Source: a virus
Taxonomy: Duplodnaviria; Heunggongvirae; Uroviricota; Caudoviricetes
IMG/VR virus record: IMGVR_UViG_2907227753_000005
Strand: one strand, 5' to 3'
DNA length: 64,000 nucleotides
Each line of letters opens with the position of its first letter. Position 1 is the first letter of the stretch. The notes under the pieces are model-generated. The model worked only from the letters and a program-made list of their open reading frames with translations. It did not search any database and had not been told where the DNA came from. The position numbers and the translations under genes are program-made. Positions 6,652 to 61,676 of the stretch are shown here, piece after piece.

Positions 6652-8055
6652 TTATTTGAATCTCTCAAGTGTCCACTTTCTGAATCTGCTCAAGAAGGTT
6701 ACTGCTTCAGCACGGGTCATTGCGGTATCCCCCAAGAACCAGGTAGTAGGCTCTTGATTACCATTCACGGGTCTACCCATATTCGTCAGTACTGCGGCAC
6801 CGTCTAAGGTCTTGACAATGTTGAAACCTGCAATCAGGGGATCGCCGTTGGAGAAGGTCTCGTCTTCCATCTCCGAAACAGACTGCTTCCACCAGTTGGT
6901 CGCTGAGGATTCAACACGCTCATCCTTGTCTTGGTAGTAGTAAGCAGATGCTCTACCAACATCCTGGAAACGTTCGCTTTCCCCCTTCTTGTAGTAAACC
7001 TTCACCTCATCTCCCTCGTTTAGAGGGTAGTTAAACACTATGGTGTGGTTGTCGATCTCCGTAACAATAGGTGCATACTTAGCAACACCATTCACCTTAA
7101 CGGCAAGCTTGTTCTTTCCCGCAGGGAAGTTACCGTTGAGTCGGAATACCCTCTGCCCATTAAAGGCGATAATGGTTTGGTCAATACCTTTAGTAGGGGC
7201 TTCCATGTCGGTGAACCTAGCGTACAGAACCTTGCGGAGCTTGTTGATGAGGTGGAATGCTTCTCCCCTCGTAATGATTGAGTTAGGGAAGAAACGGTTG
7301 TTGTATGTTGGATTGTCCGTTGTCGCCTTAACGCTCTGACTCATCATCTTGTACACGCCGTTCTCGTAAATCCAGTAATTGAACTTACACGTCACGCCGT
7401 TGAGGTTGAACGGTAGGAACAACGAACCGCCTGGGCTGACACAGTAAACATCCGTTCGGTACCCGATAGCCTTTGTCGCAATTTCAGTAACAGCATCTAC
7501 GTTACCCGCCGACTGTTGCCAAACCTGTTTAGGGATACTAAGCCTACGTAGCGGCTGACCTCCTGCATACAGGTACTCCTGGTGCTTACGGCTGTAAGGG
7601 TCATAGAAGTAAACATCGTTCTTTGGAATGACTGTTCTAGGGAGATCACCCAACCAAGACACGGGAGGTCTTTTCCAGTCCTCGTCCAGGAGTGGTACTC
7701 CGTAGCTACAGAACGCAACGATCTGACCGTTCTTGCATCCTGTATAAAGCTCGACATCCGTACCGCCCGATAAGTTATCTGCGGCAGACTTGTATATGGT
7801 TTGAACTCCGTCAATGAACACGTACAAGGGGTTACCCTCGGACGGTGTAATTTTCTTGGAGAGTTTGAACTTAGACTGACTGGTAACTGCCTTAATCTCC
7901 TCGAAGATGAAAGGCTTACCGCTCTCAAATTGGTTGTATGTCATTCCGTCAACGAAGGCATTTCCGTCTTCGAGATACATATTCGTGGCTTCCATTACAT
8001 CGTTGTAGAACCAGTCACCCTCATTCACGTCAACCCATTTTCGCATTGAAAGCAC
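6652..8055 (-). CDS. Tail protein (467 aa) carrying SLH-like motifs
   Basis: The C-terminus ...TTWFLGDTAMTRAEAVTFLSRF matches the SLH TRAE core. An internal IITRGEAFHLINKL segment resembles a second copy. The gene lies between the Dit-like gene and the tail lysin. Confidence 0.55.
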   Translation of the reverse strand: MLSMRKWVDVNEGDWFYNDVMEATNMYLEDGNAFVDGMTYNQFESGKPFIFEEIKAVTSQSKFKLSKKITPSEGNPLYVFIDGVQTIYKSAADNLSGGTDVELYTGCKNGQIVAFCSYGVPLLDEDWKRPPVSWLGDLPRTVIPKNDVYFYDPYSRKHQEYLYAGGQPLRRLSIPKQVWQQSAGNVDAVTEIATKAIGYRTDVYCVSPGGSLFLPFNLNGVTCKFNYWIYENGVYKMMSQSVKATTDNPTYNNRFFPNSIITRGEAFHLINKLRKVLYARFTDMEAPTKGIDQTIIAFNGQRVFRLNGNFPAGKNKLAVKVNGVAKYAPIVTEIDNHTIVFNYPLNEGDEVKVYYKKGESERFQDVGRASAYYYQDKDERVESSATNWWKQSVSEMEDETFSNGDPLIAGFNIVKTLDGAAVLTNMGRPVNGNQEPTTWFLGDTAMTRAEAVTFLSRFRKWTLERFK

Positions 8056-8094: not shown

Positions 8095-8745
8095 CTACTC
8101 CCTGATGATTCGCTCTATTAACCTTTTGGTTCTCATGAGGAACGTCACGAACTCAGCTCTCGTGATGAAGTCCTCAGGTCTGAAGTACAAGACAGGGGTT
8201 CCGTCAAGTTCAGTAACTACGACAATACCGAGGTTAGCCATATCCTCAATCGCCGTTCTAGCCCAGTGGTCTTTACCTTCAGTGGTCTCAAGGTCTTGGA
8301 ACTGTACAACGCTAGTGGCATCGTACCCGTCCTTTTTGATTAGGGTCATGGTCAGCTCAACCTTGTACCCTTTCTGATCTATGTTTGGGTCTCCTTGATG
8401 GTAGAACACAGGATCAGCCTTGATTGACTCAACCACCCCGAAGTAGATGTTGCCGCGCTCATCATAGAACTTATGAGTCCAACCAACATACATAGAGTAG
8501 TCGCGGAACGCTTCCTTGTCCTTGAACAGCATGTTGAGGATTGCCTTATAGGACGACACCCCCATCTGATGGAAGTGTGATGGAGCATTGATGATCTTGA
8601 TTTCCTTGACCTGGGGTTGAGGAGACGGAGTGGAGTAAGGCTCGATGATCCGAGCCTTTACTTCCACGAACTCCATCCCAGTGTCAACGAACAGTTTGCG
8701 CTTGTACTTATCATTAGCTGAGCCGAACGGGTCACGTTGGGACAT
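8095..8745 (-). CDS. Tail protein (216 aa) with a complete C-terminal SLH domain, in the distal tail protein (Dit) position
   Basis: DHWARTAIEDMANLGIVVVTELDGTPVLYFRPEDFITRAEFVTFLMR fits the SLH consensus (HWA..AI...GI...DG.F.P..ITRAE..L.R). It is the gene immediately after TMP. Confidence 0.55.
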   Translation of the reverse strand: MSQRDPFGSANDKYKRKLFVDTGMEFVEVKARIIEPYSTPSPQPQVKEIKIINAPSHFHQMGVSSYKAILNMLFKDKEAFRDYSMYVGWTHKFYDERGNIYFGVVESIKADPVFYHQGDPNIDQKGYKVELTMTLIKKDGYDATSVVQFQDLETTEGKDHWARTAIEDMANLGIVVVTELDGTPVLYFRPEDFITRAEFVTFLMRTKRLIERIIRE

Positions 8746-30080: not shown

Positions 30081-30626
30081 TTAAAGGGATGGCTCCTGCT
30101 TTGCAAAGCAAGTTCTACAAAGAGGTTCATACATATCATCACGAGCCACGAAGGTCGTACCGTCTCCCTTGTAGTAGTTAAGGGAAGCGAATTCCCCGCA
30201 CGAGCACCGCGTTCTCAGTTTGAAGCAGTTGTCGGCAATAGCCGCGATCATAGGCATTTGGAAGAACGGAACACCGTGTCTGTCCATATCCAATCCAGTA
30301 ACGAATACACTAATGCCGATCTCCCTCAGATTTTGAAGGGTCGGGATGAGAGTCGGGTCATCGAAGAACAGGGATGCTTCTTCAATCCCTACCATAGTGA
30401 GTCCTGGCTTCACATGAAGAAGAATCTCGCTTGCCTTCTCTACCCGAGTAACAGGATAGATGAGACCATCATGCGTCTTGATGATATTAGGCTCGTCCCT
30501 GTCGTCGGAGTAGGGCTTGAAGCATACAGCACTCTCCCCTGCTTCCTTCAAGTTAGCAATCAGATTGGTTGACTTGCCAGTGAACATCGTTCCCCAAAAG
30601 ACCGTAATCTCCCCGTGCTTAGTCAT
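30081..30626 (-). CDS. tdk: Thymidine kinase (TK1 family, 181 aa)
   Basis: P-loop FWGTMFTGKST and a C-terminal Zn ribbon (CSCG...CRTC) are typical of the bacterial/phage TK1 family. The gene is inserted between the TerS-like gene and TerL. Confidence 0.85.
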   Translation of the reverse strand: MTKHGEITVFWGTMFTGKSTNLIANLKEAGESAVCFKPYSDDRDEPNIIKTHDGLIYPVTRVEKASEILLHVKPGLTMVGIEEASLFFDDPTLIPTLQNLREIGISVFVTGLDMDRHGVPFFQMPMIAAIADNCFKLRTRCSCGEFASLNYYKGDGTTFVARDDMYEPLCRTCFAKQEPSL

Positions 30627-31291: not shown

Positions 31292-31945
31292 CTACATGAG
31301 AGGGGTCGGTCTGTTTGGAAGCTCGTCTATGATTTTCGCAACCTGTTCGGCGCGTTCCTTAATCTCGAACTCATCAGCGGTGATGATGTGGATATGAGAG
31401 CAGTAGTTTCCGTGTTCGTAGATACGTTCGGGGGTAATGAGCACGACATCAGCAACAGCTTCCATCTTATGCTTACCCTTCTCGAACTTCTCGGGGTCGG
31501 TTAAGGAGTCGAACACTACAAGGTTAGGGTAAGCGGTCTCTACTGAGCTTGCCATACGGCTGTCGTTTACCCAGTAGACCACCCTTCCACCCTGCATCAG
31601 TGATCGGACATTAGTACCCGCCCGCGCCACCACGAAGTTTGGAAGTTCGGGGAACGGGTACTCTAGCTCATCAACCTGATAGAACTCCTCACTCGAATTG
31701 ATGTAGACCACGTTGTACCCAAGTTCCGCTAATTCCTTCAGGAGCCGCTGTGGTCGTCGCCCGAAGCTTTCGCTGTGGAAGTCGATGGCGGGCAGGTAGA
31801 CGATGGTCGTATTAACCTTCGGTGAGTAACGAGAGAAGTTGAACTCCTCCATATCGAACTCCAATACCTCAACTGGATCAACCTGCGGTTCAACCGCGTG
31901 GCTACCGAAAAGCCGTTTGAACAGTTTTCTCATCGACCTCTCCAC
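31292..31945 (-). CDS. Short glycosyltransferase-like protein (217 aa), paralog of the N-terminal half of the next gene
   Basis: IVYLPAIDFHSESFGRRPQRLLKELAELGYNVVYIN aligns with IVYPPALDWNLLFQRPQQLMTAFSKIPGVRAIFIN in the 369-aa GT. Confidence 0.45.
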   Translation of the reverse strand: MERSMRKLFKRLFGSHAVEPQVDPVEVLEFDMEEFNFSRYSPKVNTTIVYLPAIDFHSESFGRRPQRLLKELAELGYNVVYINSSEEFYQVDELEYPFPELPNFVVARAGTNVRSLMQGGRVVYWVNDSRMASSVETAYPNLVVFDSLTDPEKFEKGKHKMEAVADVVLITPERIYEHGNYCSHIHIITADEFEIKERAEQVAKIIDELPNRPTPLM

Positions 31946-33011
31946 CTCCCATCACTTTGTTTATCATCTTAACCGCATCCATCGCTCTACTGTCCCAGGA
32001 GTTAGCTTGAGCAACCGCTGTTCGTGCCGCGATCTTGGCGGGACTGTTCTCTTTAAGTGCCTTGTCAACCATCTTGCCGCAGTTAACCCTATCCATGAAG
32101 TAGGTAACGTCACTGTATTTGTTGACGATCTCCTCCATGCGGGTCGTTACAACTGGCTTGCCCGCTGACAAGTACTCGTAGTACTTGATCGGATCACAGC
32201 CGCGAATCATCTCAGTTAACTTGAACGGAACCATACAGACATCGAACTGAGCGATATATGCAGGAAGAACTTTGTAGTCCTTGTGCGGAAGACAAGTCAC
32301 GTTCGGATGCACTACGTTCTTTTGATACAGGGCATTGTTCCCGATCAGTACGACACGATGACCTTTATTGGCAATGTCAGTAATCAACCAGTAATCCACC
32401 CAGGATGCCATCGCCCCGTGGAAGCCCACCACCTTCTGACCCTCGTTTACCGCAGGGAAGTCGGGAGGTTTCGGAAGGGAGACCTGCGCTTTCTTGAAGT
32501 GTTCGTAGTCAGCTCCGTTAGGGCACATGAAGATCGGCTTGCCATCGTCCTTATGAGCTTCGTACATAACTTTCGCCGTGGTAGCTACGAGATCGGCTCG
32601 GGCGAAGCATTTTGGGATGTAGTTCTTCCAAATAGCAAATTCGTCAGCGGAGTTGTCCAGGTAATCGAATACAGTGAAGTCGAATCTGCGTCCGTCACGG
32701 TAGTTGTACTGACCTGGGTTGGAGAACCATAGAACCTTCTTCCCTTTGACAAGGTGGTCGTAGCTCACACCCTTGCGTACAAGGAATAGGTCTTCGTTGA
32801 TCTTTTCGATTGGACGGGACATCTTTTGATACGATTCTTCATTAATGAAGATCGCCCGCACACCTGGAATCTTTGAGAACGCAGTCATCAATTGCTGAGG
32901 ACGTTGGAATAACAGATTCCAGTCCAAGGCAGGTGGGTAAACAATCGTCATTTCAATGCTATCGAACACCGCGCTCTCCTCCTTCCTTCTATTAAGTAGC
33001 CACTTTAGCAA
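31902..33011 (-). CDS. Glycosyltransferase, GT-B fold (GT1/GT4-like, 369 aa)
   Basis: C-terminal ...YYEYLSAGKPVVTT resembles the GT4 E-x7-E / G-x-P-V-V donor-binding region. It overlaps its neighbours. Confidence 0.55.
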   Translation of the reverse strand: MLKWLLNRRKEESAVFDSIEMTIVYPPALDWNLLFQRPQQLMTAFSKIPGVRAIFINEESYQKMSRPIEKINEDLFLVRKGVSYDHLVKGKKVLWFSNPGQYNYRDGRRFDFTVFDYLDNSADEFAIWKNYIPKCFARADLVATTAKVMYEAHKDDGKPIFMCPNGADYEHFKKAQVSLPKPPDFPAVNEGQKVVGFHGAMASWVDYWLITDIANKGHRVVLIGNNALYQKNVVHPNVTCLPHKDYKVLPAYIAQFDVCMVPFKLTEMIRGCDPIKYYEYLSAGKPVVTTRMEEIVNKYSDVTYFMDRVNCGKMVDKALKENSPAKIAARTAVAQANSWDSRAMDAVKMINKVMGGGEVDEKTVQTAFR

Positions 33012-33735
33012 TCAACTCAGCCCCTTCCGCATAAGCGTGGATCGGGCGAAGCCGCGTATCTACGAATAATTTGTAACCTAGTCGGCGGGCTTGTTCGCAG
33101 AATGGCGCATCTTCCCCAATGGGATGCAGTCCGTATCTTACTCCTGCTTCTACAACCTCCCTCTTTATCAAGTACACCGCCCCTGTGAGATCAACAGGAA
33201 TGACTCCCTCCTGGAACTCAGGGACATGCCGCCCACCGATCATGGCATTATGCGCTTTGATTTTCGGGTGGTTTTGGATAAGCATGGAGCAGACATCCAA
33301 GTCGTTGTCGATCAACTGCTGAAGGCTTCCTTCAGGAATGATAATATCCGTATCAATGGATAGTAGATAGTCGCAGTCGGACTGCAAAAACTCGTGAAGC
33401 AGGATGTTCCTAAGTAAAGCTAGATTGCCGTATGAGTATTGACCGCGAACATGACCGTACTTCTTCCCTAGATTATGAGTAGCATACGGGATGCCTTGGT
33501 CGATAAGGATTTGTTCAGTCTCGTCATCGCTGTCATTCAGGATGTACATGAACTCTTTGTCCACATCCTGAGACATCAGCGAATCCAGATGCCGCCCCAG
33601 TATCCACGCTCTGTTTCTTACAGGAGCACCTATAAATACTTTCGCCATTGCCATTTCCCCCTTTTCCTCTTTATCTAGTTTAGACCGATAGACATTAGCC
33701 TTTTGCCGCGCCCGCCAAAAAAACACCAATTCCAT
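32992..33735 (-). CDS. Glycosyltransferase family 2-like (GT-A fold, 247 aa)
   Basis: N-terminal Rossmann-like VFIGAPVRN, Asp-rich DSDDE and SIDTD motifs, and its size fit GT2. Confidence 0.55.
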   Translation of the reverse strand: MELVFFWRARQKANVYRSKLDKEEKGEMAMAKVFIGAPVRNRAWILGRHLDSLMSQDVDKEFMYILNDSDDETEQILIDQGIPYATHNLGKKYGHVRGQYSYGNLALLRNILLHEFLQSDCDYLLSIDTDIIIPEGSLQQLIDNDLDVCSMLIQNHPKIKAHNAMIGGRHVPEFQEGVIPVDLTGAVYLIKREVVEAGVRYGLHPIGEDAPFCEQARRLGYKLFVDTRLRPIHAYAEGAELIAKVAT

Positions 33736-34186: not shown

Positions 34187-35035
34187 ATGAAGAACAACCG
34201 TGGATTATTCATTGGAGGAGCAACAGTAGTAGGATTGGCGGTCATCGGTACCTTGATCTATCTGTTGCTGTGCTTGACGACTATCGCACCAGGGTATGTA
34301 GGTGTGGTTTATGACCGCTCGGGCGGCTTGGAGAAGGAGACACTTCCTCCTGGTTGGCACTTGGTAAGTCCTACGAAGAAGGTAACTGAGTATCCGATCA
34401 GTACGGAGACTGTCCACTACGAAGGTGACAAAGCGTTCAGCATTGCTACTAAGGACGGTAAGGTTGTCAAAGCCGAGCTGATGTACTCCTACCATATGGA
34501 TGAGAAGCGTATCCCTGATGTGTTCGCTAAGTTCCGTGGGCGTACTGACAGTGAGATCGAATCGACTTATATGAAAGATCGCCTGTCAGCAATGATTCAA
34601 GAGATCACTTCCAACTACGGAGTGCTTGAGGTTTACGGTGACAAGCGTGGGGAGATCAACAACAAGGTGTTCGAGTCCTTCAGAAAAGACTTGGACGCTG
34701 TAGGTATTGAAATCGAGACTTTCAACTTCAGTAAGATCGAACCTGACGCTGAATCTCTGAAGGCTATCCAGTCTTTGGTTGACTCTCAGCTCAAGCTTGA
34801 ACAACTGAGAATTGAGAAAGACCAGGCTCAAGTCACTGCCGAGAAGCAGTTGGTAGTAGCTAACGGTAACGCAAACGCTAAGATTGCGGAAGCACAAGGT
34901 GAAGCGAAAGCTAACGCCGCACTCCAACAGTCGATCACTCCTGAACTTCTGAAGAAGATGGAGATGGAAGCCCGCTTGAAGTGGGGTTGGGTAACTATTC
35001 AAGGTGCCCAGGCTGTTGTGACCGAGAACAAGTAA
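34187..35035 (+). CDS. SPFH/band-7 (prohibitin/HflK-like) membrane protein (282 aa)
   Basis: N-terminal TM helix, then an SPFH-like core and a C-terminal coiled coil (AEKQLVVANGNANAKIAEAQGEAKANA). Confidence 0.7.
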   Translation: MKNNRGLFIGGATVVGLAVIGTLIYLLLCLTTIAPGYVGVVYDRSGGLEKETLPPGWHLVSPTKKVTEYPISTETVHYEGDKAFSIATKDGKVVKAELMYSYHMDEKRIPDVFAKFRGRTDSEIESTYMKDRLSAMIQEITSNYGVLEVYGDKRGEINNKVFESFRKDLDAVGIEIETFNFSKIEPDAESLKAIQSLVDSQLKLEQLRIEKDQAQVTAEKQLVVANGNANAKIAEAQGEAKANAALQQSITPELLKKMEMEARLKWGWVTIQGAQAVVTENK

Positions 35036-35224
35036 TGGACGAGGGAGGAGAAATCCTCCCTTTTTCCTATTCTATTAAAGAAAGGAGTTGTTAACGATGT
35101 ACGATTGCCCTGATTGTATGAGCTTCCTAGTGGTTTGTCCTTGCTGTCAGCACTCATTCTGCCCTGACTGCGGAGCTTCTGAGGATGAGATTGAGGAGAA
35201 GAAAGAACAGGAAGGTGATGAGGA

Positions 35225-35965
35225 ATGCTAGGAACCTGGGACTTGATTAAGAACTGGTTCCAAATGGCGGCTAACGGTGAACGCCATGCTTCAGTTCGGT
35301 TCGGGGATGCTTCCAATACCATCCTTGCTCATGATACCGTGCTTACCATGGACTTCATCAAGTCGCATTACGGTTGGATCAGCGACCCGACTTACTGTGG
35401 CATTACCCTTCCTAACGCGAATGCAAGGGACATCATCGTTCACTGCTTGCGGAACGCTGACTACGTAGGTCACCTGACACAGACTGATCACTGGTACTTC
35501 AAGCCACTGTTCGATATGTGCTTGCGATACTACCGAGTGGAGCCGAAGGAGACCTTCTATGCGTTCGAGAACAATTACATTGCTCGGTTCAAGCCGTTCT
35601 ATGACACCTTCAGGACTTTACCAATTTTGCTCTGTGGAGCCAAAGCTGTCCAGTACAAGGAAGTACTAGAACGCCGCTACGGTTTCACTGGAATCGTTGG
35701 TACCGTCGATTGTCCCAACTGGGAAGGGTTACAGAAGGCTACTAAGGACATGGAAGCCCTATATAAGACCAATCCATGGCGACTTGCCCTCGTTTGTGCA
35801 GGTGCTCCTGGCAAAGTACTGGCTGTGAAGGCGAAACTGCTCGGAACAGTGGGTGTAGACTTCGGATCGGGTGCAGATGTAGCCATTCAAGCTGATAAAG
35901 AGGGCTTAGATGCCTGGGATTACAAAGGATTCCCCGATTATTGGGCAGGAAGACCACGAAAATAG
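35225..35965 (+). CDS. Hypothetical protein (246 aa)
   Basis: Clean ORF followed by the GACCCCTTTTGGGGTC-T6 terminator. Confidence 0.5.
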   Translation: MLGTWDLIKNWFQMAANGERHASVRFGDASNTILAHDTVLTMDFIKSHYGWISDPTYCGITLPNANARDIIVHCLRNADYVGHLTQTDHWYFKPLFDMCLRYYRVEPKETFYAFENNYIARFKPFYDTFRTLPILLCGAKAVQYKEVLERRYGFTGIVGTVDCPNWEGLQKATKDMEALYKTNPWRLALVCAGAPGKVLAVKAKLLGTVGVDFGSGADVAIQADKEGLDAWDYKGFPDYWAGRPRK

Positions 35966-36187: not shown

Positions 36188-36261
36188 TGGCAGGGGATGC
36201 AGGAATCGAACCTACGAATCGACATTCAAAGTGTCGTGTCTTGCCACTAAACGAATCCCCG
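36188..36261 (-). tRNA. tRNA-Gln (anticodon UUG)
   Basis: Folded by hand: anticodon arm CGACA-CUUUGAA-UGUCG, T-arm GUAGG-UUCGAUU-CCUGC, U8, encoded CCA. The acceptor has a C1/U72 mismatch. Confidence 0.6.
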
Positions 36262-36262
36262 A

Positions 36263-36336
36263 TGGAGCGAAATGAGGGAGTCGAACCCTCACCGTCTGCT
36301 TGGAAGGCAGAAGTTCTACCATTAAACTAATATCGC
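36263..36336 (-). tRNA. tRNA-Gly (UCC)
   Basis: Anticodon arm UCUGC-CUUCCAA-GCAGA, T-arm GAGGG-UUCGACU-CCCUC, encoded CCA. Confidence 0.65.
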
Positions 36337-36338
36337 AT

Positions 36339-36412
36339 TGGCACAGGCTGATGGAATCGAACCACCGTTAACGGGTTTGGAAGCCGTAGTTCTGCCACTG
36401 AACTAAACCTGC
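36339..36412 (-). tRNA. tRNA-Trp (CCA)
   Basis: Acceptor GCAGGUU/AGCCUGU. Anticodon loop UUCCAAA with a 31-39 mismatch. T-arm GGUGG-UUCGAUU-CCAUC. Confidence 0.5.
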
Positions 36413-36421
36413 ATATTAAGA

Positions 36422-36493
36422 TGGACTGAGATGGAATCGAACCACCGTCTGCGGGATTTCACTCCACCGCTAAGCCACTCAGCTACCAGTCCA
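36422..36493 (-). tRNA. tRNA-Phe (GAA)
   Basis: Perfect 7-bp acceptor UGGACUG/CAGUCCA. Anticodon loop GUGAAAU. T-arm GGUGG-UUCGAUU-CCAUC. CCA is not encoded. Confidence 0.5.
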
Positions 36494-36495
36494 TA

Positions 36496-36569
36496 TGGGG
36501 TGACGGACGGAATCGAACCGTGGACTCCTGATTCACAGTCAGGCATGTTACCACTACACTATCGTCACC
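36496..36569 (-). tRNA. tRNA-His (GUG)
   Basis: Acceptor GGUGACG/CGUCACC with discriminator C. Anticodon arm CCUGA-CUGUGAA-UCAGG. Confidence 0.55.
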
Positions 36570-36570
36570 A

Positions 36571-36647
36571 TGGTTGGAACAGATGGATTTGAACCATCAA
36601 CCTCCCGCTTATCAGACGGGTGCGCTAACCAGTTGCGCCATGTTCCA
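36571..36647 (-). tRNA. tRNA-Ile (GAU)
   Basis: Acceptor UGGAACA/UGUUCCA. D-arm GCGC-AACUGGUUA-GCGC. Anticodon arm CCCGU-CUGAUAA-GCGGG. T-arm GAUGG-UUCAAAU-CCAUC. ACCA end. Confidence 0.65.
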
Positions 36648-36648
36648 T

Positions 36649-36728
36649 TAGGCTCCTCCGTCAGGACTTGCACCTGAAACCGTCTTTGCGCGAGACAGCT
36701 CTACTAACTTGAGCATTACGTGAGGAAT
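36649..36728 (-). other. tRNA-like segment that does not fold into a canonical cloverleaf; possible pseudo-tRNA or other small RNA
   Basis: A T-arm-like UCAGG-UGCAAGU-CCUGA and a D-arm-like GCUC...GAGC are present, but no acceptor pairing could be found. Confidence 0.25.
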
Positions 36729-36730
36729 AT

Positions 36731-36805
36731 TGGCAGGGAAGCCAGGACTCGAACCTGGAACATCCGCATTAACAGTGCGGCGTTCTACCATTGAACTACA
36801 ACCCT
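36731..36805 (-). tRNA. tRNA-Asn (GUU) with two U-U mismatches in the acceptor stem
   Basis: U8, D-arm GUUC-AAUGGUA-GAAC, anticodon arm CCGCA-CUGUUAA-UGCGG, T-arm CCAGG-UUCGAGU-CCUGG, GCCA end. Acceptor AGGGUUG versus CUUCCCU. Confidence 0.45.
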
Positions 36806-36806
36806 A

Positions 36807-36905
36807 TAGGAAACCGTAGGTGGACTCGAACCACCGATAAAGCCACTCATTCTCGTCGTGAGCAGGAATCAAACCTGCGTAGCAGTACCCCGTAACGGTC
36901 ATATG
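36807..36905 (-). other. Degenerate tRNA-like region, possibly tRNA-Ser(UGA)-like with a truncated D-arm
   Basis: There are two T-arm-like hairpins (GCAGG-UUUGAUU-CCUGC and GGUGG-UUCGAGU-CCACC). A class-II-like fold with a 6/7 acceptor pairing is possible, but the D region is too short. Confidence 0.25.
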
Positions 36906-36907
36906 AA

Positions 36908-36981
36908 TAGGAGATGTTGGATTTGAACCAACGACCCTGTGCGTCCAAGGCACGTACTCTAACCATCTGAGCTAATCCCCT
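36908..36981 (-). tRNA. tRNA-Pro (UGG)
   Basis: Acceptor AGGGGAU/AUCUCCU with one G-U pair. D-arm GCUC-AGAUGGUUA-GAGU. Anticodon loop CUUGGAC. T-arm GUUGG-UUCAAAU-CCAAC. Confidence 0.6.
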
Positions 36982-36985
36982 GTAT

Positions 36986-37060
36986 TGGCGGCTCTAAGGG
37001 GAATCGAACCCCTCCCTCTCCGCTGACAACGGAATGTCCTAACCGATAAACGATAGAGCC
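36986..37060 (-). tRNA. tRNA-Asp (GUC)
   Basis: Acceptor GGCUCUA/UAGAGCC. Anticodon arm UUCCG-UUGUCAG-CGGAG. T-arm GGGG-UUCGAUU-CCCC. GCCA end. Confidence 0.65.
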
Positions 37061-37064
37061 AAGG

Positions 37065-37176
37065 CATCACCCTGTCGGACTCGAACCGACTCTGGCGGCT
37101 AGTTTCCCCTTAGGTACTCGTAGCCACAGTGCATCCCACACTGAGGGCTAATAGTGCTCCCAACCCGAAGGTCAGG
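37065..37176 (-). other. T-arm-containing tRNA-like remnant fused to a minus-oriented copy of the conserved GC-rich intergenic element
   Basis: GUCGG-UUCGAGU-CCGAC T-arm with no matching acceptor. It is followed, in minus sense, by ccttcgggttggg-agcactattagccctcagtgtggg, which matches the 42.8 kb element. Confidence 0.3.
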
Positions 37177-37186
37177 AGCGTATTTG

Positions 37187-37804
37187 TTACTTACCAGTCG
37201 CGGCTGTTTGAACAGTAACCTTGGAGTTACCTGCGGCAACGACAGCATTCGTAGCAATGGATTCAACACGGCTGTTAGCGGATTTTAGTTCTTCACGCAG
37301 TGTAGCGATCAGAGCTTCTTGGGATTCCACAGTTTCCTCAAGGGAAGTAATGCGGTTCTCAAGAACCCGTTTGTCAGCTTTATTCTCAGCATCCTGCAAG
37401 CGCAGTTCACCGTCGAACTCCTTCTTGGCTTCGGTTTTACCTTTGTTGAAGGCAACCGCTTCAGCTTTCGCCACAACCTCAGGAATCGCAGTAACCTTGG
37501 CTTGAAGTTCAGCAACCACGGACTCGGAATGATCGGCAGACTGCTCACGAGCTTCAACAGCTACTTCGCGGTCAGCGACTTCTTTAACACGATCTGCAAG
37601 TTCAGAATCCAGTGCGTCCTGACGATCACGCTTTTCCTTGTTGAACTGGTATGTATCTTCTTCCTTCTGACGAGCCAGTTCTTTCTTCCAAGCCGCCGCT
37701 TGTTCTGCTTTCTCCGCTTCAAACTCCTGACGAGCTTCCTCAATCACAAGTGCGTAAGCGTCCAGTACGTTCTGCTTCGTTTCAACCGTTGTTTTCTTCG
37801 CCAC
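37187..37804 (-). CDS. Coiled-coil protein (205 aa) embedded inside the tRNA array
   Basis: Highly charged, Ala/Glu/Lys-rich heptad-like sequence with tRNA genes on both sides. Confidence 0.5.
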   Translation of the reverse strand: MAKKTTVETKQNVLDAYALVIEEARQEFEAEKAEQAAAWKKELARQKEEDTYQFNKEKRDRQDALDSELADRVKEVADREVAVEAREQSADHSESVVAELQAKVTAIPEVVAKAEAVAFNKGKTEAKKEFDGELRLQDAENKADKRVLENRITSLEETVESQEALIATLREELKSANSRVESIATNAVVAAGNSKVTVQTAATGK

Positions 37805-37839
37805 GTTTTCGTTCCCCCTGGTAAGTGTTTTAGTTGTTT

Positions 37840-37913
37840 TGGTTTGGGTAGCGGGATTCGAACCCGCGTCTACTGGTTATGAGCCAGTCAAGGAACCGCT
37901 CCTCTATACCCAG
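37840..37913 (-). tRNA. tRNA-Met (CAU); the C1/A72 mismatch is initiator-like
   Basis: Anticodon arm ACUGG-CUCAUAA-CCAGU. T-arm GCGGG-UUCGAAU-CCCGC. ACCA end. Acceptor CUGGGUA/UACCCAA with 1-72 unpaired. Confidence 0.55.
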
Positions 37914-37916
37914 TCA

Positions 37917-38174
37917 TTAATAGACAATCGCTTCGATACCATCACTCGTAGTGACAAGCTTCAGGCGACCCTTGAACTGCAACGAACCCTGCGTATGAGG
38001 ATTGTCGGGAGTGTTCTTCGTCGTGAAAGGAACTTCAGAAGTGAGGTTCATCACGTAGTATGTCTCGCCTTTACACTTGATCGTCCATGGAGCAATGCCA
38101 GGATTACCGATGCTTTTCTTATTGAAATGAAAGACTACTCTCGTTGGTTTATCGCTGATAACTTCTTCGATCAT
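37917..38174 (-). CDS. Small hypothetical protein (about 85 aa from the internal Met; the ORF track extends it to 38249, where it would overlap tRNA-Cys)
   Basis: The ORF lies between tRNA-Met and tRNA-Cys. The start was moved to MIEEV to avoid the tRNA overlap. Confidence 0.3.
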   Translation of the reverse strand: MIEEVISDKPTRVVFHFNKKSIGNPGIAPWTIKCKGETYYVMNLTSEVPFTTKNTPDNPHTQGSLQFKGRLKLVTTSDGIEAIVY

Positions 38175-38202
38175 AGCTCTCACCTCTCTAAGGATTGTTT
38201 TA

Positions 38203-38276
38203 AGCGGAAGGATGGATTCGAACCACCGATCTTTGGGTTTGCGACCCAACGCCTTAAACCTCTTGGCTACTTCCGC
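38203..38276 (-). tRNA. tRNA-Cys (GCA)
   Basis: Perfect acceptor GCGGAAG/CUUCCGC with discriminator U. D-arm UAGCCAAG..GGC as in Bacillus tRNA-Cys. Anticodon loop UCGCAAA is atypical at position 33. Confidence 0.5.
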
Positions 38277-38277
38277 A

Positions 38278-38352
38278 TGGTAGCGTGTACGGGAATCGAA
38301 CCCGTGATCTCCGATAGAAAGTCGGATGTCTTAGCCGCTTGACCAACACGCC
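38278..38352 (-). tRNA. tRNA-Glu (UUC)
   Basis: Acceptor GGCGUGU/ACACGCU. Anticodon arm UCCGA-CUUUCUA-UCGGA. T-arm ACGGG-UUCGAUU-CCCGU. ACCA end. Confidence 0.6.
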
Positions 38353-38353
38353 A

Positions 38354-38437
38354 TGGTGGATGAGGTAGGAGTCGAACCTACACAGCAGTTAAGCCACGGG
38401 TTTACAGCCCGCTATTCTCGCCAGTGATTGGTGCCCA
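38354..38437 (-). tRNA. tRNA-Tyr (GUA), class II with a long variable arm
   Basis: Acceptor GGAUGGG/CUCAUCC. Anticodon arm GCGGG-CUGUAAA-CCCGU. T-arm GUAGG-UUCGACU-CCUAC. ACCA end. About 84 nt. The D-arm is atypical. Confidence 0.45.
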
Positions 38438-38566
38438 TCCAAGTGGTTGTTCCTCTATGAAACATAGATTAGTGCAGTTAACTTAGGAAATAACACTCCA
38501 ACACGAAAAACCTGAGAAAAACTTCCTCAAGTTGAGTTTCTTCTATATAAGGGAGCAAAAAATTAA

Positions 38567-38640: not shown

Positions 38641-38849
38641 TGATCTATGTCGTAGCCGTAATTGCATTCTTAATCCTGGGAGCGTTGACTCGTGGTGCTC
38701 CTGTCTTGGGACTCTTTCTTATATTAGGGGGATTCGTACTTGCCTTCTTCTTAGGAGTTACTACAGAGCAGATCGAGACATTTTCACCTGTGATCGGAGG
38801 AGCAGTCCTCGGGTTCCTATTGGGACTCATAAGCAGGTTCATAGATTAA
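38641..38849 (+). CDS. Small two-TM membrane protein, about 69 aa from the TTG start (ORF track 38532..38849)
   Basis: AAAGGGGGAAC RBS then TTG. Two hydrophobic helices with GxxxG-like packing. The upstream part of the tracked ORF overlaps the tRNA promoter. Confidence 0.35.
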
Positions 38850-38963
38850 AATTTCCCACCTCACCTATAGGTGGGATTTTACATTTCTTGGCGTTTACGA
38901 GAGTCCAAGCGTATGCTAATATATGGGAACTGCCACCATTAAACAAAAAAGGAAGGTATCATC

Positions 38964-39752
38964 ATGAAGAAAATTGCACTGGTCATCACACTGGCATCAA
39001 CCCTTGTTTTCGGTTCCACTGCCGCGAACGTACAGGCATCGTCATTTAATGACGTAAGCGAGACAAAACACTCTTGGGCTGTTAAAGCCATCGACTTTAT
39101 GAGTGAGCAAGGAGTGATCAAGGGATACTCAGACGGAACGTTCAAACCCGACAATGGAGTGACTAAGGCAGAGTTCGTAAGTATGTTCTCCCGCCTTTTT
39201 GATAAGTACACTACCAACGACTCCACCACCCGCGAGTTCAAAGACGTTCCATCTACTAATTGGGCATATGAACCAGTATCTAAGATAATGTCGAACTATA
39301 CATACTTTACATACAGCAAAGACGGTAGCGGGATGAACTTCCATCCAAACACTAAATTGACTCGCCTGGGTGCCGCGAACTTGTTACCCGCACTATACGA
39401 AGAAATTGACGACGAAAAGGAAGTCTACAACATCCTACGAAGCATGAAAGACATCAAGGTTTATGAGAACGTTAACGGCTATGATCAAGATGGTAGGTTT
39501 GATGAATCAGTAGATCGCACTAACTCACAATTTCCAATCATCTTCAAAAACGGAGCACTAGATGACGACTATTCAGCTATCGTAGGAATAAAGATTGCAA
39601 GCCTTCAAAACGAAGGACTAATGACCGCTTATGAGGGTAATTTCAGCCCTAACAAGACACTCACTAGAGCTGAAGCCGCTACTACCCTATACCGCCTTTA
39701 TACTCAATTAAAGGGTGATGGCGATCTCTCGAATTACTCAAGTATTAAGTAG
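38964..39752 (+). CDS. Secreted protein with a signal peptide and three SLH domains, no catalytic domain (262 aa)
   Basis: MKKIALVITLASTLVFGSTAANVQA signal peptide. SLH1 FNDVSETKHSWAVKAIDFMSEQGVIKGYSDGTFKPDNGVTKAEFVSMFSRL. SLH2 FKDVPSTNWAYEPVSKIM.... SLH3 ...FSPNKTLTRAEAATTLYRLY. Confidence 0.7.
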   Translation: MKKIALVITLASTLVFGSTAANVQASSFNDVSETKHSWAVKAIDFMSEQGVIKGYSDGTFKPDNGVTKAEFVSMFSRLFDKYTTNDSTTREFKDVPSTNWAYEPVSKIMSNYTYFTYSKDGSGMNFHPNTKLTRLGAANLLPALYEEIDDEKEVYNILRSMKDIKVYENVNGYDQDGRFDESVDRTNSQFPIIFKNGALDDDYSAIVGIKIASLQNEGLMTAYEGNFSPNKTLTRAEAATTLYRLYTQLKGDGDLSNYSSIK

Positions 39753-39762
39753 AACGAAAATA

Positions 39763-39796
39763 AGAGCGCGGGGCTTAACTCCCTTCGCTCTTTTTC
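39763..39796 (+). terminator. Rho-independent terminator after the SLH gene
   Basis: gagcgcgggg...ccttcgctc hairpin followed by TTTTT. Confidence 0.55.
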
Positions 39797-40652
39797 TATT
39801 ATATAAGACACACCGCACCAACCTTACGAGAAAAATTTCCCCGCGCCCGTAGGAGTCCCATTAACTCGCGGAGCGAAAAATGTATTACCCCTAGATTTAC
39901 CCCGATTATGCAGGAAAAACCATACCTCCTTGACTTAGACAACAGCCGCCCCACTCCCATGCCCAATGCCCTTTACCCGCGCCCAACACCCATGCCCCCT
40001 TACCCTTTGCCCAAGACACGAGACCCCGCCGCCCGTGCCCCGAGACATTGCCCCAAGACCCTAACTCTCGCGCATCAAGGTTCACCAAAAATTTCCCGTA
40101 GGAGTCATGACGCTCCTGCGCCGTGTGAAGGATGATAGAAAAACCCGCGACACTGGGGGGGTTAATCTCTTGACCCTTGTTTGTTTTTATTTTTTATAAA
40201 AAAACATTGCTCAAAGGGGTTGCAATCCAATCCTATTGCGTTCTTAGATATGGTCATCGAGTTGGTCGCCGCCACCGACTCGATAGGGAAACATCCCGAA
40301 TGTACGACAGGCGGCAAAGACGCGAAATGCGCCTAGATCATTGACAAACACATACACGAAACATGCACGGCTTGTGCATGGGACGAAGCTTCTCTTGTGA
40401 AGGGTGAAGTCTGCCCACATGAAGGATTGTACTATGGCAACAGCCTACGCTTTACGGTTCATGCCCAACATGTAACGAGATGTCACGAATTGCCCACGTT
40501 ACGGGACGGTGTAGTACAAGGTGCGGTATCCGTAAGTTAATCGGAGGTTCAGATGCCTTGCTATGCTAGAGGTCTGTTCACTCATGGGCTAATCAGGGCT
40601 ACCAAAGGTAGTCACTATTAGTGCCCATCAAGGGCAAAGGAGACTAAAAACC

Positions 40653-42411: not shown

Positions 42412-42801
42412 ATGAAAGACGTACAAGTGCAAGTAAAGGTTATCGAGGGTATCGAGGTAAGAGCGCATGAGAAAGGCGAGTTCATGATTGGTGCCTTGAT
42501 TACGAATAACGGTAAAGAAGTCGGAGCAAGCGGTATCGTAGCTGGTGTACCTGAGGACATCACAAACTTCTATGCGGCTATTGAAGCTATGGCAGGATCG
42601 GTAACGAAAACACTGCTTGATGCTGAAGTACCACCACAGGTCATCGAAGGCATGATGATCGAAGCGATTCGGGACGGTATCAAAGAAGGAGTGACCCGTC
42701 ACGTAGCTGAAGAAATGCCGCATGTACATGCCATGGCTGAACGGGCTATGCAAGGTGACATCGGTGCCTTGCTTGGTATGCTCTCCAAAGTATTGGCTTA
42801 G
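42412..42801 (+). CDS. Hypothetical early protein (129 aa)
   Basis: Strong RBS AGGAGG and a conserved upstream element. Confidence 0.55.
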   Translation: MKDVQVQVKVIEGIEVRAHEKGEFMIGALITNNGKEVGASGIVAGVPEDITNFYAAIEAMAGSVTKTLLDAEVPPQVIEGMMIEAIRDGIKEGVTRHVAEEMPHVHAMAERAMQGDIGALLGMLSKVLA

Positions 42802-47475: not shown

Positions 47476-48210
47476 TTGACCGATATGGATTCAGCAGCCT
47501 ATGATAAAGTTGTGATCGAAGGTCGGTACGCTGACGAGTTATGTCAGCGTTTCGACATGATGGATAATGCCACTGGAAGCATGTTAGCACTGATGGGGTT
47601 TGTAAGTGACTTCAGGTTCCCCTTGATGAGGGGCATCCTACTTCTTGAGTACGGCGGTACAGGTGATGTGGTCATCACATTCAACCTTGACGATGACCGA
47701 ACAGGTAGCGGTCATTACAAGATGAATAGCGGGATTGAATGGAGAGTTCAGGGTACCAAGATAACCCTCCTCTCCGATCCCCCTAACCCCGCTGATCGGA
47801 AGAAGGTTACTGAGATCGCTCAGTACTTCACCAACGTGTTCAAGGCAGTCATGCAACGTATGACAAGACGTAAGGATGAAGTTGTGAAGGAGGAACGCCG
47901 CATACCCAAGGTCAAGAAGGGTAAGGTCAAGCACGGTAAGAAACAGAAGAACCGAACGGTATACGTTAGGCAGACCGTCTACAAGGTATCCTCCCCTACC
48001 CCATCCCCTACTATAGAAGAAGGAGAACGTGAGAAGCGTGACTATGAGCGGCAAACGTTCAGATGGACAAGGGCAGGACATCACCGCCGACTACGCAACG
48101 GCGAGGTTAGATGGTTCCCTGAGAAGGAGATTGTTCTTGATCCTAACGCAGTGAAGGAAAGTAAGACCTACAAAATACAGAAAGGTGAAGGTGAACAGAA
48201 TGACGGTTAA
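47476..48210 (+). CDS. Hypothetical protein with a Lys-rich basic segment (244 aa)
   Basis: KVKKGKVKHGKKQKNR stretch. It overlaps the next gene. Confidence 0.5.
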   Translation: MTDMDSAAYDKVVIEGRYADELCQRFDMMDNATGSMLALMGFVSDFRFPLMRGILLLEYGGTGDVVITFNLDDDRTGSGHYKMNSGIEWRVQGTKITLLSDPPNPADRKKVTEIAQYFTNVFKAVMQRMTRRKDEVVKEERRIPKVKKGKVKHGKKQKNRTVYVRQTVYKVSSPTPSPTIEEGEREKRDYERQTFRWTRAGHHRRLRNGEVRWFPEKEIVLDPNAVKESKTYKIQKGEGEQNDG

Positions 48211-48655
48211 ACGTAACGAACTGGCAGAAAAGTATGAGAAGGTTGAGGGTACCATCATGGTACCTATCAAGTACACCCTGGATGACTTGGAAGGTCTCCT
48301 TATTAGTGCATGGGAAGGTGGAAGTACATATTGGGTCGGCAAGGTTGAGGTGAATCACCCTAAAGTAGCTAAGCAGGTTGCTTATGACGCTGACTGGGCT
48401 ACCTCTGAGTGGGCTTTCAACGCACTTGTTGAGGGTGGTAGCATCTATGTCGAAGACAACGAGGGTGGAGAATACAAGGGCACCATCACCTTGGAAAGCT
48501 TTAAGAAAGGCTTTGAGAAGTTCGTCGCTCACCGTGCTAACCAAAGCGCACTGAACTTTATCTACAACGGCAGTATTGACGGTGGTCAACTCGATGCAGG
48601 TGATGCTGATGGAGTATTCCAGTACGCGGCATTCGGAGAGTGGGTGTTCGGATGA
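48185..48655 (+). CDS. Hypothetical protein (156 aa)
   Basis: Coupled to its neighbours. Confidence 0.5.
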   Translation: MKVNRMTVKRNELAEKYEKVEGTIMVPIKYTLDDLEGLLISAWEGGSTYWVGKVEVNHPKVAKQVAYDADWATSEWAFNALVEGGSIYVEDNEGGEYKGTITLESFKKGFEKFVAHRANQSALNFIYNGSIDGGQLDAGDADGVFQYAAFGEWVFG

Positions 48656-60405: not shown

Positions 60406-61233
60406 ATGATTAAACTTAATGGCGCAACCCTCAACTTCAAGGTCTTCCCTAATGGGGAGACTTTGGTTGACGGGGATCAAATTTTAGACCTCTTAGCAGA
60501 CAGAAACTATGACGCTGAAGTCATCTTCAAATATGAAAACGACAGTGACCTCGTGAAGCTCCTGTTCGTCAAGTCCCACCTGGATAGGTACTTCTGTAAG
60601 AGAAGCATTCTGAAGATCGCATACATGCCATACAGCCGCATGGACAGGTCTGAAGGGTCATCGGTCTTTACACTGAAGTACGTCGCCAAGATGATTAACG
60701 ACATGAACTTCGACTACGTTAATGTGATCGAGCCGCACTCTGATGTCACGTTGGCACTACTTGATCGTTGTGAAGCTACTTACCCAACCACCGCCCTCCT
60801 GCATGAGGTCATGATGGAAGTAGACTTCGACATCGAAAAGGATTATCTGTTCTTCCCCGACCAAGGTGCTCAAAAGCGTTACGGAAAGAACTTCACTAAG
60901 TTCAAGCAACTGGTTGGGTTTAAGGAACGCAACTTTGCTACTGGGGAGATCGACAAGCTTCAACTGGTCGGCTCTGTCGAGAGTAAAGGGTTCAAAGCGG
61001 TCATTGTGGATGACCTCTGCTCTTACGGAAACACATTCATCAGAAGCTCCAATGCTCTGCGTGAAGTAGGCGCGGCTGAGGTTCATCTCGTAGTGACTCA
61101 TGCTGAGGACTCTATCTTCAAAGGAAATGTGTTCACCTCTGAGCTGATTGACCATGTATACACCACGAACACTCTGCTCACCGAAGTACTTGAAGCATGG
61201 GAGAGCAAGATTAGCGTGAAGGAGCTGATCTAA
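60406..61233 (+). CDS. Ribose-phosphate pyrophosphokinase (Prs)-like enzyme (275 aa); a candidate ADP-ribose pyrophosphokinase (Adps-type) rather than a canonical PRPP synthetase
   Basis: N-domain ...KIAYMPYSRMDRSE matches the Prs (V)IPYFGYARQDRK loop. C-domain PRTase-type binding loop AVIVDDLCSYGNT. It is shorter than the roughly 315-aa housekeeping Prs. RBS aaagggtga. Confidence 0.65.
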   Translation: MIKLNGATLNFKVFPNGETLVDGDQILDLLADRNYDAEVIFKYENDSDLVKLLFVKSHLDRYFCKRSILKIAYMPYSRMDRSEGSSVFTLKYVAKMINDMNFDYVNVIEPHSDVTLALLDRCEATYPTTALLHEVMMEVDFDIEKDYLFFPDQGAQKRYGKNFTKFKQLVGFKERNFATGEIDKLQLVGSVESKGFKAVIVDDLCSYGNTFIRSSNALREVGAAEVHLVVTHAEDSIFKGNVFTSELIDHVYTTNTLLTEVLEAWESKISVKELI

Positions 61234-61676
61234 TGGAGAAGCTACCCCTGATTGACACAAACGGAACTGACCCCTTCCTCCACCCCACCAACGCCATAAA
61301 CAGGCTTGTGAATGAGTGGAGAGAGCACGGGAAGATCATCATTGCCTACGACTTCGATGACACCGTGTACGACTACCACAAGCGGGGCAGTAGCTACGAC
61401 CAAGTAATCAGTCTTCTGCAACGCTGTGAAGCCTACGGTGCATATTTCATCGTCTCCACTTGTTGTAGTGAGGACAAGTACGACTTCATTAAGGACTACT
61501 TGGAGAGTAACGGCATCCCTTATGACGCGATCAACGAGAACGCACCGTTTGTACCCTTCACTGGTCGGAAGATTTACTGCAACATACTACTTGATGACCG
61601 CGCAGGACTTCTTACTTCTTACGTAACTCTTGACAGTGCCTTAAAAATACTTGAATCGGAGCGTGTAATCCTATGA
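61233..61676 (+). CDS. HAD-superfamily phosphatase-like protein (147 aa), translationally coupled between the Prs-like and NAMPT-like genes
   Basis: Motif I IIIAYDFDDTV (hhhhDxDxT/V), an S/T motif FIVST, and a motif IV-like LLDDRAG. TAATG overlap upstream and ATGA overlap downstream. Confidence 0.5.
   Translation: MEKLPLIDTNGTDPFLHPTNAINRLVNEWREHGKIIIAYDFDDTVYDYHKRGSSYDQVISLLQRCEAYGAYFIVSTCCSEDKYDFIKDYLESNGIPYDAINENAPFVPFTGRKIYCNILLDDRAGLLTSYVTLDSALKILESERVIL

Follow-up and report, generated by a model that had tools for sequence, protein, structure and literature searches.

The DNA analysed here, called the window throughout, is a 64,000-nucleotide stretch of a Caudoviricetes virus (IMG/VR record IMGVR_UViG_2907227753_000005), and our subject is a gene at 38964..39752 on its plus strand. 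An earlier note had described the product as a secreted protein made only of a signal peptide and three S-layer homology (SLH) domains, and had proposed that it masks receptors or excludes superinfecting phages. The open reading frame (ORF) is present exactly as that note gave it, with an ATG start and a length of 262 aa. On balance, we lean towards reading the gene as a host-derived moron that encodes a wall-anchored protein occupying the secondary cell wall polysaccharide (SCWP). The gene and its surroundings contain the following features.

38848..38857, plus strand: left copy of the direct repeat AAAATTTCCC (ATG-116), at the start of the block common to chromosomal loci
38854..38876, plus strand: insulating terminator-like stem-loop with T-run (dG -13.5 kcal/mol, z -4.2), from a terminator scan and alignment
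38894..38922, plus strand: putative sigma-A-like promoter, read from the sequence, with -35 TTTACG (38894-38899), 17-nt spacer and extended -10 TGc-TAATAT (38914-38922)
38950..38956, plus strand: ribosome-binding site AGGAAGG, 7 nt before the ATG, with the AAAAGGAAG core invariant in the alignment
38964..39752, plus strand: coding sequence (CDS), 262 aa; mature protein of 237 aa, 26.8 kDa and isoelectric point 4.9
38964-39038 (aa 1-25), plus strand: predicted signal peptide, from sequence features and the per-residue confidence (pLDDT) of an AlphaFold2 (AF2) model
39042-39209 (aa 27-82), plus strand: SLH1, with W38, G54 and TKAE 67-70
39234-39401 (aa 91-146), plus strand: SLH2, with W100 and TRLG 133-136
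39384..39575 (aa 141-204), plus strand: acidic family-specific insert between the SLH2 and SLH3 helices, with 16 D/E and 7 K/R
39438-39731 (aa about 159-256), plus strand: SLH3, interrupted by the insert, with Y203, A222 and TRAE 234-237
39763..39796, plus strand: intrinsic terminator, a GC-rich hairpin (39763-39791) followed by TTTTT (39792-39796), which begins 11 nt past the stop (dG -17.1, z -4.2)
39832..39841, plus strand: right copy of AAAATTTCCC (stop+80), near the end of the block common to the chromosomal locus L007
40088-40097, plus strand: third copy of AAAATTTCCC (AAAATTTCCCGTAGGAGTC), conserved in all related phages including L009

The N-terminus of the protein combines an MKK n-region with a 17-residue hydrophobic core (residues 4-20, mean Kyte-Doolittle 1.94) and a cleavage motif between VQA and SS, and residues 1-25 are the only part of the AF2 model with a pLDDT below 50. 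The protein contains no Cys and therefore has no lipobox. In Pfam, the SLH family (PF00395) reaches 81.5 bits (cutoff 20.8); two of the repeats pass on their own, and no other family is reported at E ≤ 10. Among solved structures, the SLH modules of B. anthracis Sap are the closest in sequence (phmmer E 3.5e-11), and in the predicted fold the three repeats form a three-pronged spindle, i.e. a pseudo-trimer. The SLH-only protein is thus a bona fide member of the SCWP-binding SLH superfamily (Pfam PF00395 / PROSITE PS51272). Neither Pfam nor structure search found a crystallisation or other functional passenger domain, the mature 237 aa being made up of the SLH module and the 64-aa insert; the protein is therefore not an S-layer or Bsl-type surface protein. 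The architecture given in the earlier note, a signal peptide and three SLH repeats lacking a catalytic domain, is borne out by Pfam, the AF2 model and the structure search, and the hidden catalytic domain against which it had warned appeared in neither search. As modelled, the protein amounts to a single, complete pseudo-trimer of three SLH repeats that conceals no enzyme.

A groove for pyruvylated SCWP is built from SLH-Arg43, SLH-Gly29 and SLH-Trp13 of three different repeats (PMC6081394). The SLH trimer of SpaA binds its ligand 1:1 in solution, and unequal grooves are normal for such trimers (PMC6081394). We mapped the ligand residues on 15 family sequences and assigned the grooves by sequence register. 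The positions equivalent to Trp13, Gly29 and Arg43 are W38, G54 and K68 (TKAE) in SLH1, W100, no conserved Gly29 and R134 (TRLG) in SLH2, and Y203, A222 and R235 (TRAE) in SLH3. W38, G54, R134 and R235 are invariant, and W100 is found in 13 of the 15 sequences. R235 of SLH3, G54 of SLH1 and W100 of SLH2 together make up a groove that is fully canonical and conserved, so that at least one groove of this kind is present; the second (R134/A222/W38) is partial and the third (K68, no Gly29 equivalent, Y203) degenerate. As judged from these residues, binding to pyruvylated SCWP is a well-founded expectation, and we regard secretion and wall binding of the protein as likely.

The insert within SLH3 is predicted to be structured (helix 151-160, strands 166-168 and 192-195, pLDDT >90) and is kept across family members, phage and chromosomal alike. 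A phmmer search with residues 141-204 against 1.84 billion representative proteins returned six matches at E ≤ 1e-3, four of them within the SLH-only family. The remaining two are repetitive proteins of 2062 aa and 836 aa with no evident relevance, which rules out a known or portable domain, and the structure search gave no structural match for the insert. A conserved, structured and family-specific insert suggests that the protein does more than passively block sites.

The window is phage DNA, as the earlier note had assumed, and it belongs to a large Jenst-like siphophage that has inserted into ytfJ, a sporulation gene, in a Paenibacillus chromosome. The contigs of relatives span 113-118 kb. 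The exact NAPRTase of the window recurs on an NCBI contig of 1.1 Mb (GCA_001955535.1) and three further large contigs, and the junction between prophage and chromosome (truncated ytfJ, scpAB-rib) lies on contigs of 1.1 Mb, 301 kb, 145 kb and 117 kb. About 3-4 kb past the right end of the window, phage lysis genes (Amidase_2, holin) abut a 38-codon ytfJ fragment that is 84% identical to the N-terminus of P. glacialis YtfJ and is followed by DUF2953, scpB, scpA and the rib operon. At locus L041 this region reads as follows.

L041 14745-14903 and 15007-15705, minus strand: interrupted ytfJ / DUF2953 region; the prophage breaks ytfJ after codon 38

In the lysogen, ytfJ comes immediately after DUF2953, and no member of the SLH-only family separates the two. 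The exact SLH allele of the window occurs on 12 contigs, always in the ytfJ-prophage context. The integration junctions bear out the temperate lifestyle that the earlier note implied and rule out a virulent large phage, a reading considered in view of the tRNAs, NAD salvage, thymidine kinase and SNF2 helicase and the lack of an integrase in the window; neither an integrase nor a repressor was recognised within the 64 kb. Interruption of ytfJ recalls the SPbeta- and skin-type intervening elements in sporulation genes, and our literature search found no paper connecting ytfJ with prophage integration. Within the window, a leftward block (692-33735) encodes a Phage_cap_E capsid protein, virion structural proteins, glycosyltransferases, a 3050-aa tape-measure protein (PhageMin_Tail, from the precomputed annotation of identical contigs) and a 1045-aa M23-peptidase tail protein. 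Twelve minus-strand tRNAs follow at 36188-38352, and the rightward block carries the SNF2 helicase and a NAMPT / PRPP-synthetase pair. The SLH-only gene sits 612 nt from the last of the twelve tRNAs, past a 105-aa membrane ORF, where the two blocks diverge.

Homology search yielded full-length homologues of similar size that are 45-93% identical to the SLH-only protein. Those in phage context are L001 (93%), L035/L036 (59-61%) and the IMG/VR contig L009 (48%), and they occupy one slot directly upstream of a conserved 138-aa gene. Ordinary chromosomal contexts were found in P. vulneris and Paenibacillus sp. 32352 (79%), in P1XP2 and on a Logan contig, and a core-genome site, DUF2953-SLH-ytfJ, in P. 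glacialis, Cohnella mopanensis and on a metagenomic contig. The core-site alleles share 52-54% identity with the phage alleles and have different promoters. The full-length architecture occurs widely among species-representative genomes of Paenibacillus, Brevibacillus, Cohnella and Saccharibacillus, and the best 80 loci divide into one phage-like context, two core sites and 77 located elsewhere. No match was obtained in a megablast of 8 kb against 50,697 phage records, and tblastn of the protein against phage records returned two weak gut contigs only, so that no GenBank phage in this set encodes the family. A close-relative scan of IMG/VR for the protein found nothing, which reflects its limited sensitivity, as the 48% allele on the IMG/VR contig L009 was found via a neighbouring gene. 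A decayed copy lies at L061 7959-8493 (P. thiaminolyticus BO5), where residues 1-111 are fused to 207-260 with a frameshift, in an apparent prophage remnant beside chromosomal ABC-transporter genes.

In a neighbour-joining tree the phage alleles are polyphyletic, and three phage lineages each pair with a different chromosomal allele at 100% bootstrap: the window and L001 with P. vulneris and 32352, L035/L036 with P1XP2, and L009 with L033. The phage proteins that immediately flank the gene are 74-94% identical between these phages, whereas the SLH protein is 48-61% identical. At the nucleotide level the gene is closer between phage and chromosome (75-82%) than between phages (68-70%), and the phage-chromosome homology reaches ~70-120 nt upstream and, in two pairs, ~60-100 nt downstream. 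Together with its GC content (43.4% for the cassette versus 48.4% for the window), the polyphyly and the flank identities show an evolutionary history unlike that of the phage backbone. By these comparisons the SLH-only cassette is a classical moron of host ancestry, its gene copied recently from a chromosomal Paenibacillaceae family and apparently renewed by recombination at least three times.

The exchange has also left traces within the gene. Between the window and L001, identity is 94.6% in the first 259 nt of the CDS, 87.7% in the rest and about 95% in both flanks, and between phage L035 and chromosomal P1XP2 it falls from 95.7% in the promoter to 90.5% in the 5' and 75.5% in the 3' CDS; the mosaic breakpoints thus fall inside the CDS. 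Compared with L001, a 96%-identical relative, the ratio of nonsynonymous to synonymous substitution rates (dN/dS) is 0.07 over 79 substitutions. The mosaic divergence inside the CDS accounts for the anomalously high dS of the gene (0.47 versus 0.02-0.24 for its neighbours). That the allele of the window or of L001 was converted by one like those of P. vulneris and 32352 is unsupported as an explanation for this dS (23 versus 30 informative sites), and the donor in any such conversion, if one existed, is unsampled. Capture of the gene by aberrant excision from a ytfJ-site copy, attractive as the prophage sits in ytfJ, was rejected on account of the 52-54% identity, the different promoter and the distance of ~28 kb from the prophage end. 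The phage needs the gene, as is shown by its strong purifying selection and by alleles having been replaced repeatedly at a fixed slot.

What is exchanged is, as read from its signals, a self-contained unit of ~1 kb that comprises hairpin, sigma-A-like promoter, ribosome-binding site, CDS and terminator and is flanked by a 10-bp direct repeat. The hairpin at 38854-38876 lies directly 3' of the stop codon of the upstream 105-aa ORF and is kept in the chromosomal copy L007. The promoter is kept in all 8 copies of the mobile clade, phage and chromosomal, and is absent from the ytfJ-site copies in the alignment. A sigma-B or sporulation-sigma reading of the upstream region was dropped by eye on spacing, as a sigma-A-like promoter with extended -10 fits best. 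The counterparts of the downstream terminator in chromosomal L002/L007 have a dG of -21.2. Homology to L002 and L007 begins at 38848, and that to L007 ends at 39852. With a putative promoter and a predicted terminator of its own, the unit appears separable from the flanking phage operons, as expected of a moron, and transcription of the gene from its own promoter in the lysogen seems somewhat more probable than the alternative. The repeat AAAATTTCCC has three exact copies in the 64 kb, all within 1.25 kb (expected 0.14, P about 4e-4), and its motif recurs at ATG-116/-119/-147 across L001, chromosomal L007/L002, and L035. In the form AAAATTTYYC it bounds the block at near-identical offsets in the phages and in L007. 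Allowing one mismatch in AAAATTTCCC gave no enrichment, the exact or pyrimidine-degenerate form alone being enriched. These repeats may mark the boundaries at which cassettes are swapped, or serve in their recombination. Between the cassette and the next gene, 800 nt (39853-40652) hold several hairpins and no convincing ORF; this interval includes a Pro/Ala-rich pseudo-ORF (39908-40135) and an indel relative to L001 at about 39943-39982.

The phage tail module also encodes an SLH protein, from a gene between those of the tape-measure protein and the M23 tail peptidase.

8095..8745, minus strand: tail-module SLH protein of 216 aa with one C-terminal SLH (aa about 148-205)

Its SLH scores 26.2 bits in Pfam and E 1.4e-8 with a profile hidden Markov model (HMM) of the family, and keeps Trp13 (W161) and TRAE (195-198) without Gly29. 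Such a protein could form a standard SLH spindle as a homotrimer, an arrangement that PMC12285257 cites for the single-SLH protein SlpA. When the family HMM was run over all ORFs of the window, SLH-like segments appeared in three proteins only: the SLH-only protein, the 216-aa protein and its 467-aa neighbour (6652..8055). The proposal that the tail proteins carry SLH domains therefore holds for the 216-aa protein; in the 467-aa protein the signal is marginal only. The 216-aa protein is a full-length member of phrog_32188, a family unrelated to phrog_32768.

Anchoring of SLH domains to SCWP is the main attachment of S-layers and surface enzymes in many Firmicutes. Sap of B. anthracis (PDB 3PYW/6BT4) and SpaA of P. 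alvei (PDB 6CWC and others) use SLH trimers as SCWP anchors for a large crystallisation domain. In contrast to both, to which it is ~23% identical, the SLH-only protein consists entirely of the SLH module, carries a ~60-residue family-specific insert in SLH3 and is encoded by a prophage. The endolysin LysBT1 is likewise a phage-encoded protein with SLH for wall binding in a Paenibacillaceae-related host and a TRAE motif. However, LysBT1 joins a single SLH to an amidase and works in lysis, whereas the SLH-only protein has three SLH repeats, a signal peptide and no enzyme. The prophage's own endolysin (Amidase_2, L041 12600-13367) has no SLH in the precomputed Pfam list. The wall-binding domain of LysBT1 is the sole characterised phage SLH function that we found in the literature, and our search found no phage-encoded SLH-only protein, SLH moron or SLH-based exclusion. 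Brevibacillus phages Jenst and SecTim467 and Bacillus phage EZ-2018a (genomes of 118-130 kb) share the tail order of tape measure, SLH protein, hypothetical protein and M23 peptidase. In Jenst (126 kb), gp155 is annotated as 'S-layer homology domain-containing protein' in this same gene order. These three phages have no homologue of the SLH-only secreted protein. The lifestyle of Jenst-type phages is given as undetermined (PMC4909266); the present element, a relative of theirs, is integrated.

Like the classical morons lom and bor of lambda, the SLH-only gene forms an autonomous promoter-gene-terminator unit of foreign ancestry that encodes an envelope protein, in line with the general concept of morons and lysogenic conversion (PMC7067206, PMC6469090). 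Unlike them, the cassette has swapped alleles with chromosomes three or more times at a single slot, is delimited by a direct repeat of 10 bp, and would address a Gram-positive SCWP rather than the outer membrane. We therefore describe the product as an SLH module in the role of a moron or lysogenic-conversion envelope protein, of putative functional significance. T5 Llp, phi80 Cor and TP-J34 Ltp are superinfection exclusion lipoproteins that bind a protein receptor or the incoming tail. The SLH-only protein resembles them as a small exported phage-encoded protein that could deny a receptor to incoming phages. In contrast to them it would compete for a polysaccharide ligand and shows no homology, and as it lacks Cys, and hence a lipobox, it is not an exclusion lipoprotein of the Llp/Ltp type.

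In the mechanism that we propose, a ~1-kb unit would shuttle between the chromosomes of Paenibacillus and large temperate siphophages of a Jenst-like lineage, and the prophage in ytfJ would express the SLH-only gene from the unit's own host-type promoter. The product would be exported by Sec, lose its 25-residue signal peptide, fold as a single SLH pseudo-trimer and hold pyruvylated SCWP non-covalently via at least one canonical groove (Arg235, Gly54, Trp100). Occupancy of the SCWP would then alter the set of SLH proteins, or of particles bearing SLH, that can dock on the lysogen's wall. As the protein has no enzymatic or display domain, it could act only by occupying SCWP sites, possibly while also presenting the small acidic insert. 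Several observations weigh against this reading. Lys replaces the canonical Arg43 in SLH1, SLH2 lacks a conserved Gly29 and SLH3 has Ala at this position, so that a single groove is fully canonical. The promoter matches the consensus at 8 of 12 positions, was not reported by a consensus scanner and was deduced from conservation. For the accessory chromosomal copies, the tree is compatible with transfer from host to phage as well as in the reverse direction. The deleted and frameshifted L061 copy indicates that the gene is dispensable in some settings.

Two consequences of SCWP occupancy lead the field: a host-type wall function for the lysogen, which we put forward tentatively, and reduced adsorption of SLH-tailed phages, which we consider rather doubtful. 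As the family occurs mostly in non-phage contexts on chromosomes, its distribution argues for a host-type function, which need not be anti-phage, over exclusion. In the former, the prophage copy would act as the chromosomal family does, e.g. as an SCWP-anchored adaptor or organiser working through the insert, with a possible link to sporulation given the ytfI-ytfJ core locus and a benefit independent of competition between phages; Lom and Bor of lambda are comparable as host-like envelope proteins. Such lysogenic conversion would fit the shared set of promoter, ribosome-binding site and terminator in phage and chromosomal copies, the insert conserved in both, and the strong purifying selection. 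Moreover, as no member lies between DUF2953 and ytfJ in the lysogen, the prophage may supply a paralogue that is missing there. However, the core-site copies differ in promoter and share only 52-54% identity, and a host-type function leaves unexplained that the gene has stayed at a single fixed slot in three phage lineages. Retention of that slot through repeated allele replacement is what would be expected of a host-specificity or arms-race gene, and it counts towards the receptor masking proposed in the earlier note, in which the secreted protein saturates the pyruvylated SCWP sites used by SLH-bearing tails. The protein has no predicted function other than SCWP binding, the gene is borne by a prophage under a putative promoter of its own, and the predicted signal peptide and wall module would place the product of this temperate phage in the envelope, as expected of an exclusion protein. 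The virion tail module, in addition, encodes an SLH protein with intact Trp13 and TRAE that is conserved in Jenst-like phages. Adsorption of B. anthracis phage AP50c reportedly needs CsaB-dependent SLH anchoring (PMC3545897), so the SLH-SCWP interface matters to phages. Against masking stand the overwhelmingly chromosomal family, which includes a conserved core-genome site, a structured insert that simple blocking would not need, the putative nature of the adsorption role of the tail SLH protein and the lack of a precedent in the literature that we searched. Furthermore, SCWP sites are abundant and already taken by S-layer and other SLH proteins, from which we infer that competition driven by one moderate promoter is quantitatively doubtful. 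Of the earlier note's interpretation, the architecture, phage carriage, moron-like unit, tail SLH and temperate lifestyle thus stand, while receptor masking survives as a live minority hypothesis. Its most specific form is unlikely: a decoy that competes for ligand by saturating the pyruvylated ends of the SCWP, which keeps this phage and its SLH-tailed relatives from docking, and whose AAAATTTYYC-bounded cassette is re-sampled from host chromosomes to match the local SCWP chemistry. If true, it would be a Gram-positive, polysaccharide-level analogue of receptor-masking exclusion systems, with modular shuttling of alleles between phage and host.

A helper in the lytic cycle, which displaces S-layer or other SLH proteins from SCWP for endolysin access and egress or coats debris against re-adsorption, seems to us improbable. 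The gene does head the non-structural block, on the rightward strand, and S-layers can occlude wall-binding probes in Paenibacillus (bioRxiv 10.64898/2026.09.23.753664). However, its host-type promoter and the terminators on both sides set it apart from any phage operon, the lysis genes (holin, Amidase_2) are >25 kb away at the prophage end, and the chromosomal homologues have no lysis context. We give very little credence to a neutral passenger, a cassette carried along as it recombines with chromosomal paralogues and without a function for the phage. The decayed copy in L061 and the ready recombination of the cassette would agree with it; the dN/dS of 0.07 over 79 substitutions, the conserved binding residues and an ORF that stays intact at one slot in four phage lineages across 48-93% identity argue against it.

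A prophage gene that encodes an SLH module and nothing else offers a simple genetic handle for asking whether the occupancy of SCWP sites can be manipulated, and with it S-layer attachment, surface display and phage susceptibility. The cassette also documents cleanly that a unit from promoter to terminator has been exchanged repeatedly between phage and host, with mosaicism inside the gene, which bears on how morons are acquired and renewed, and it points to a widespread uncharacterised Paenibacillaceae family of SLH-only proteins with a conserved insert. The competition model, if true, would represent a new class of superinfection exclusion.

Several further features of the element were recorded. 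The last gene at the right end of the prophage (L041 13957-14712, minus strand) codes for a protein of 251 aa that has two CapR-homology domains (Pfam 43.9 bits) as well as repeated CxxC zinc-ribbon motifs and is not recognisable as a recombinase. An Rfam scan of 35.9-42.5 kb found tRNAs only, plus one sub-threshold tRNA-like match. The latter (38358-38440, minus strand), immediately upstream of tRNA-Glu, has a long variable arm, matches tRNA-Sec at 39.5 bits (gathering score 47, E 2.4e-5) and was missed by ARAGORN; it may be a 13th tRNA. Inside the tRNA cluster, a charged, probably coiled-coil ORF of 205 aa (37187-37804, minus strand) gave no Pfam match and is conserved in L001 (dN/dS 0.07) and L009 (77% aa identity). 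Glycosyltransferase-like genes (Glyco_trans_1_4, weak Anp1-like, GT-D-like) and a gene for an SPFH/Band-7 protein lie at 31902-33735 (minus strand) and 34187-35965 (plus strand), between the structural block and the tRNAs. Related phages conserve this cluster, whose products could modify glycans on the host surface or proteins of the virion.

Upstream of the SLH gene, L009 (12593-18285) and L061 (9194-11874) carry a different accessory island. It encodes Cro/CI-type helix-turn-helix regulators with weak TPR matches (428-432 aa, a full-length phrog_32768 member; another of 520 aa), which may be RRNPP-like communication or lysogeny regulators, as well as a matrixin-like metalloprotease (HEMGHALSLAHN) and secreted proteins. 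The NAD-salvage pair, PRPP-synthetase-like and NAMPT/NAPRTase, lies at 60406-63169 (plus strand), and a thymidine kinase was assigned to 30081-30626 (minus strand) by homology to L001; to our knowledge such auxiliary metabolic genes are unusual for an integrated prophage. In the region compared with L001, the highest dN/dS values belong to two early-region genes at 42412-42801 (0.44) and 48185-48655 (0.40), both on the plus strand, which suggests relaxed or diversifying selection.

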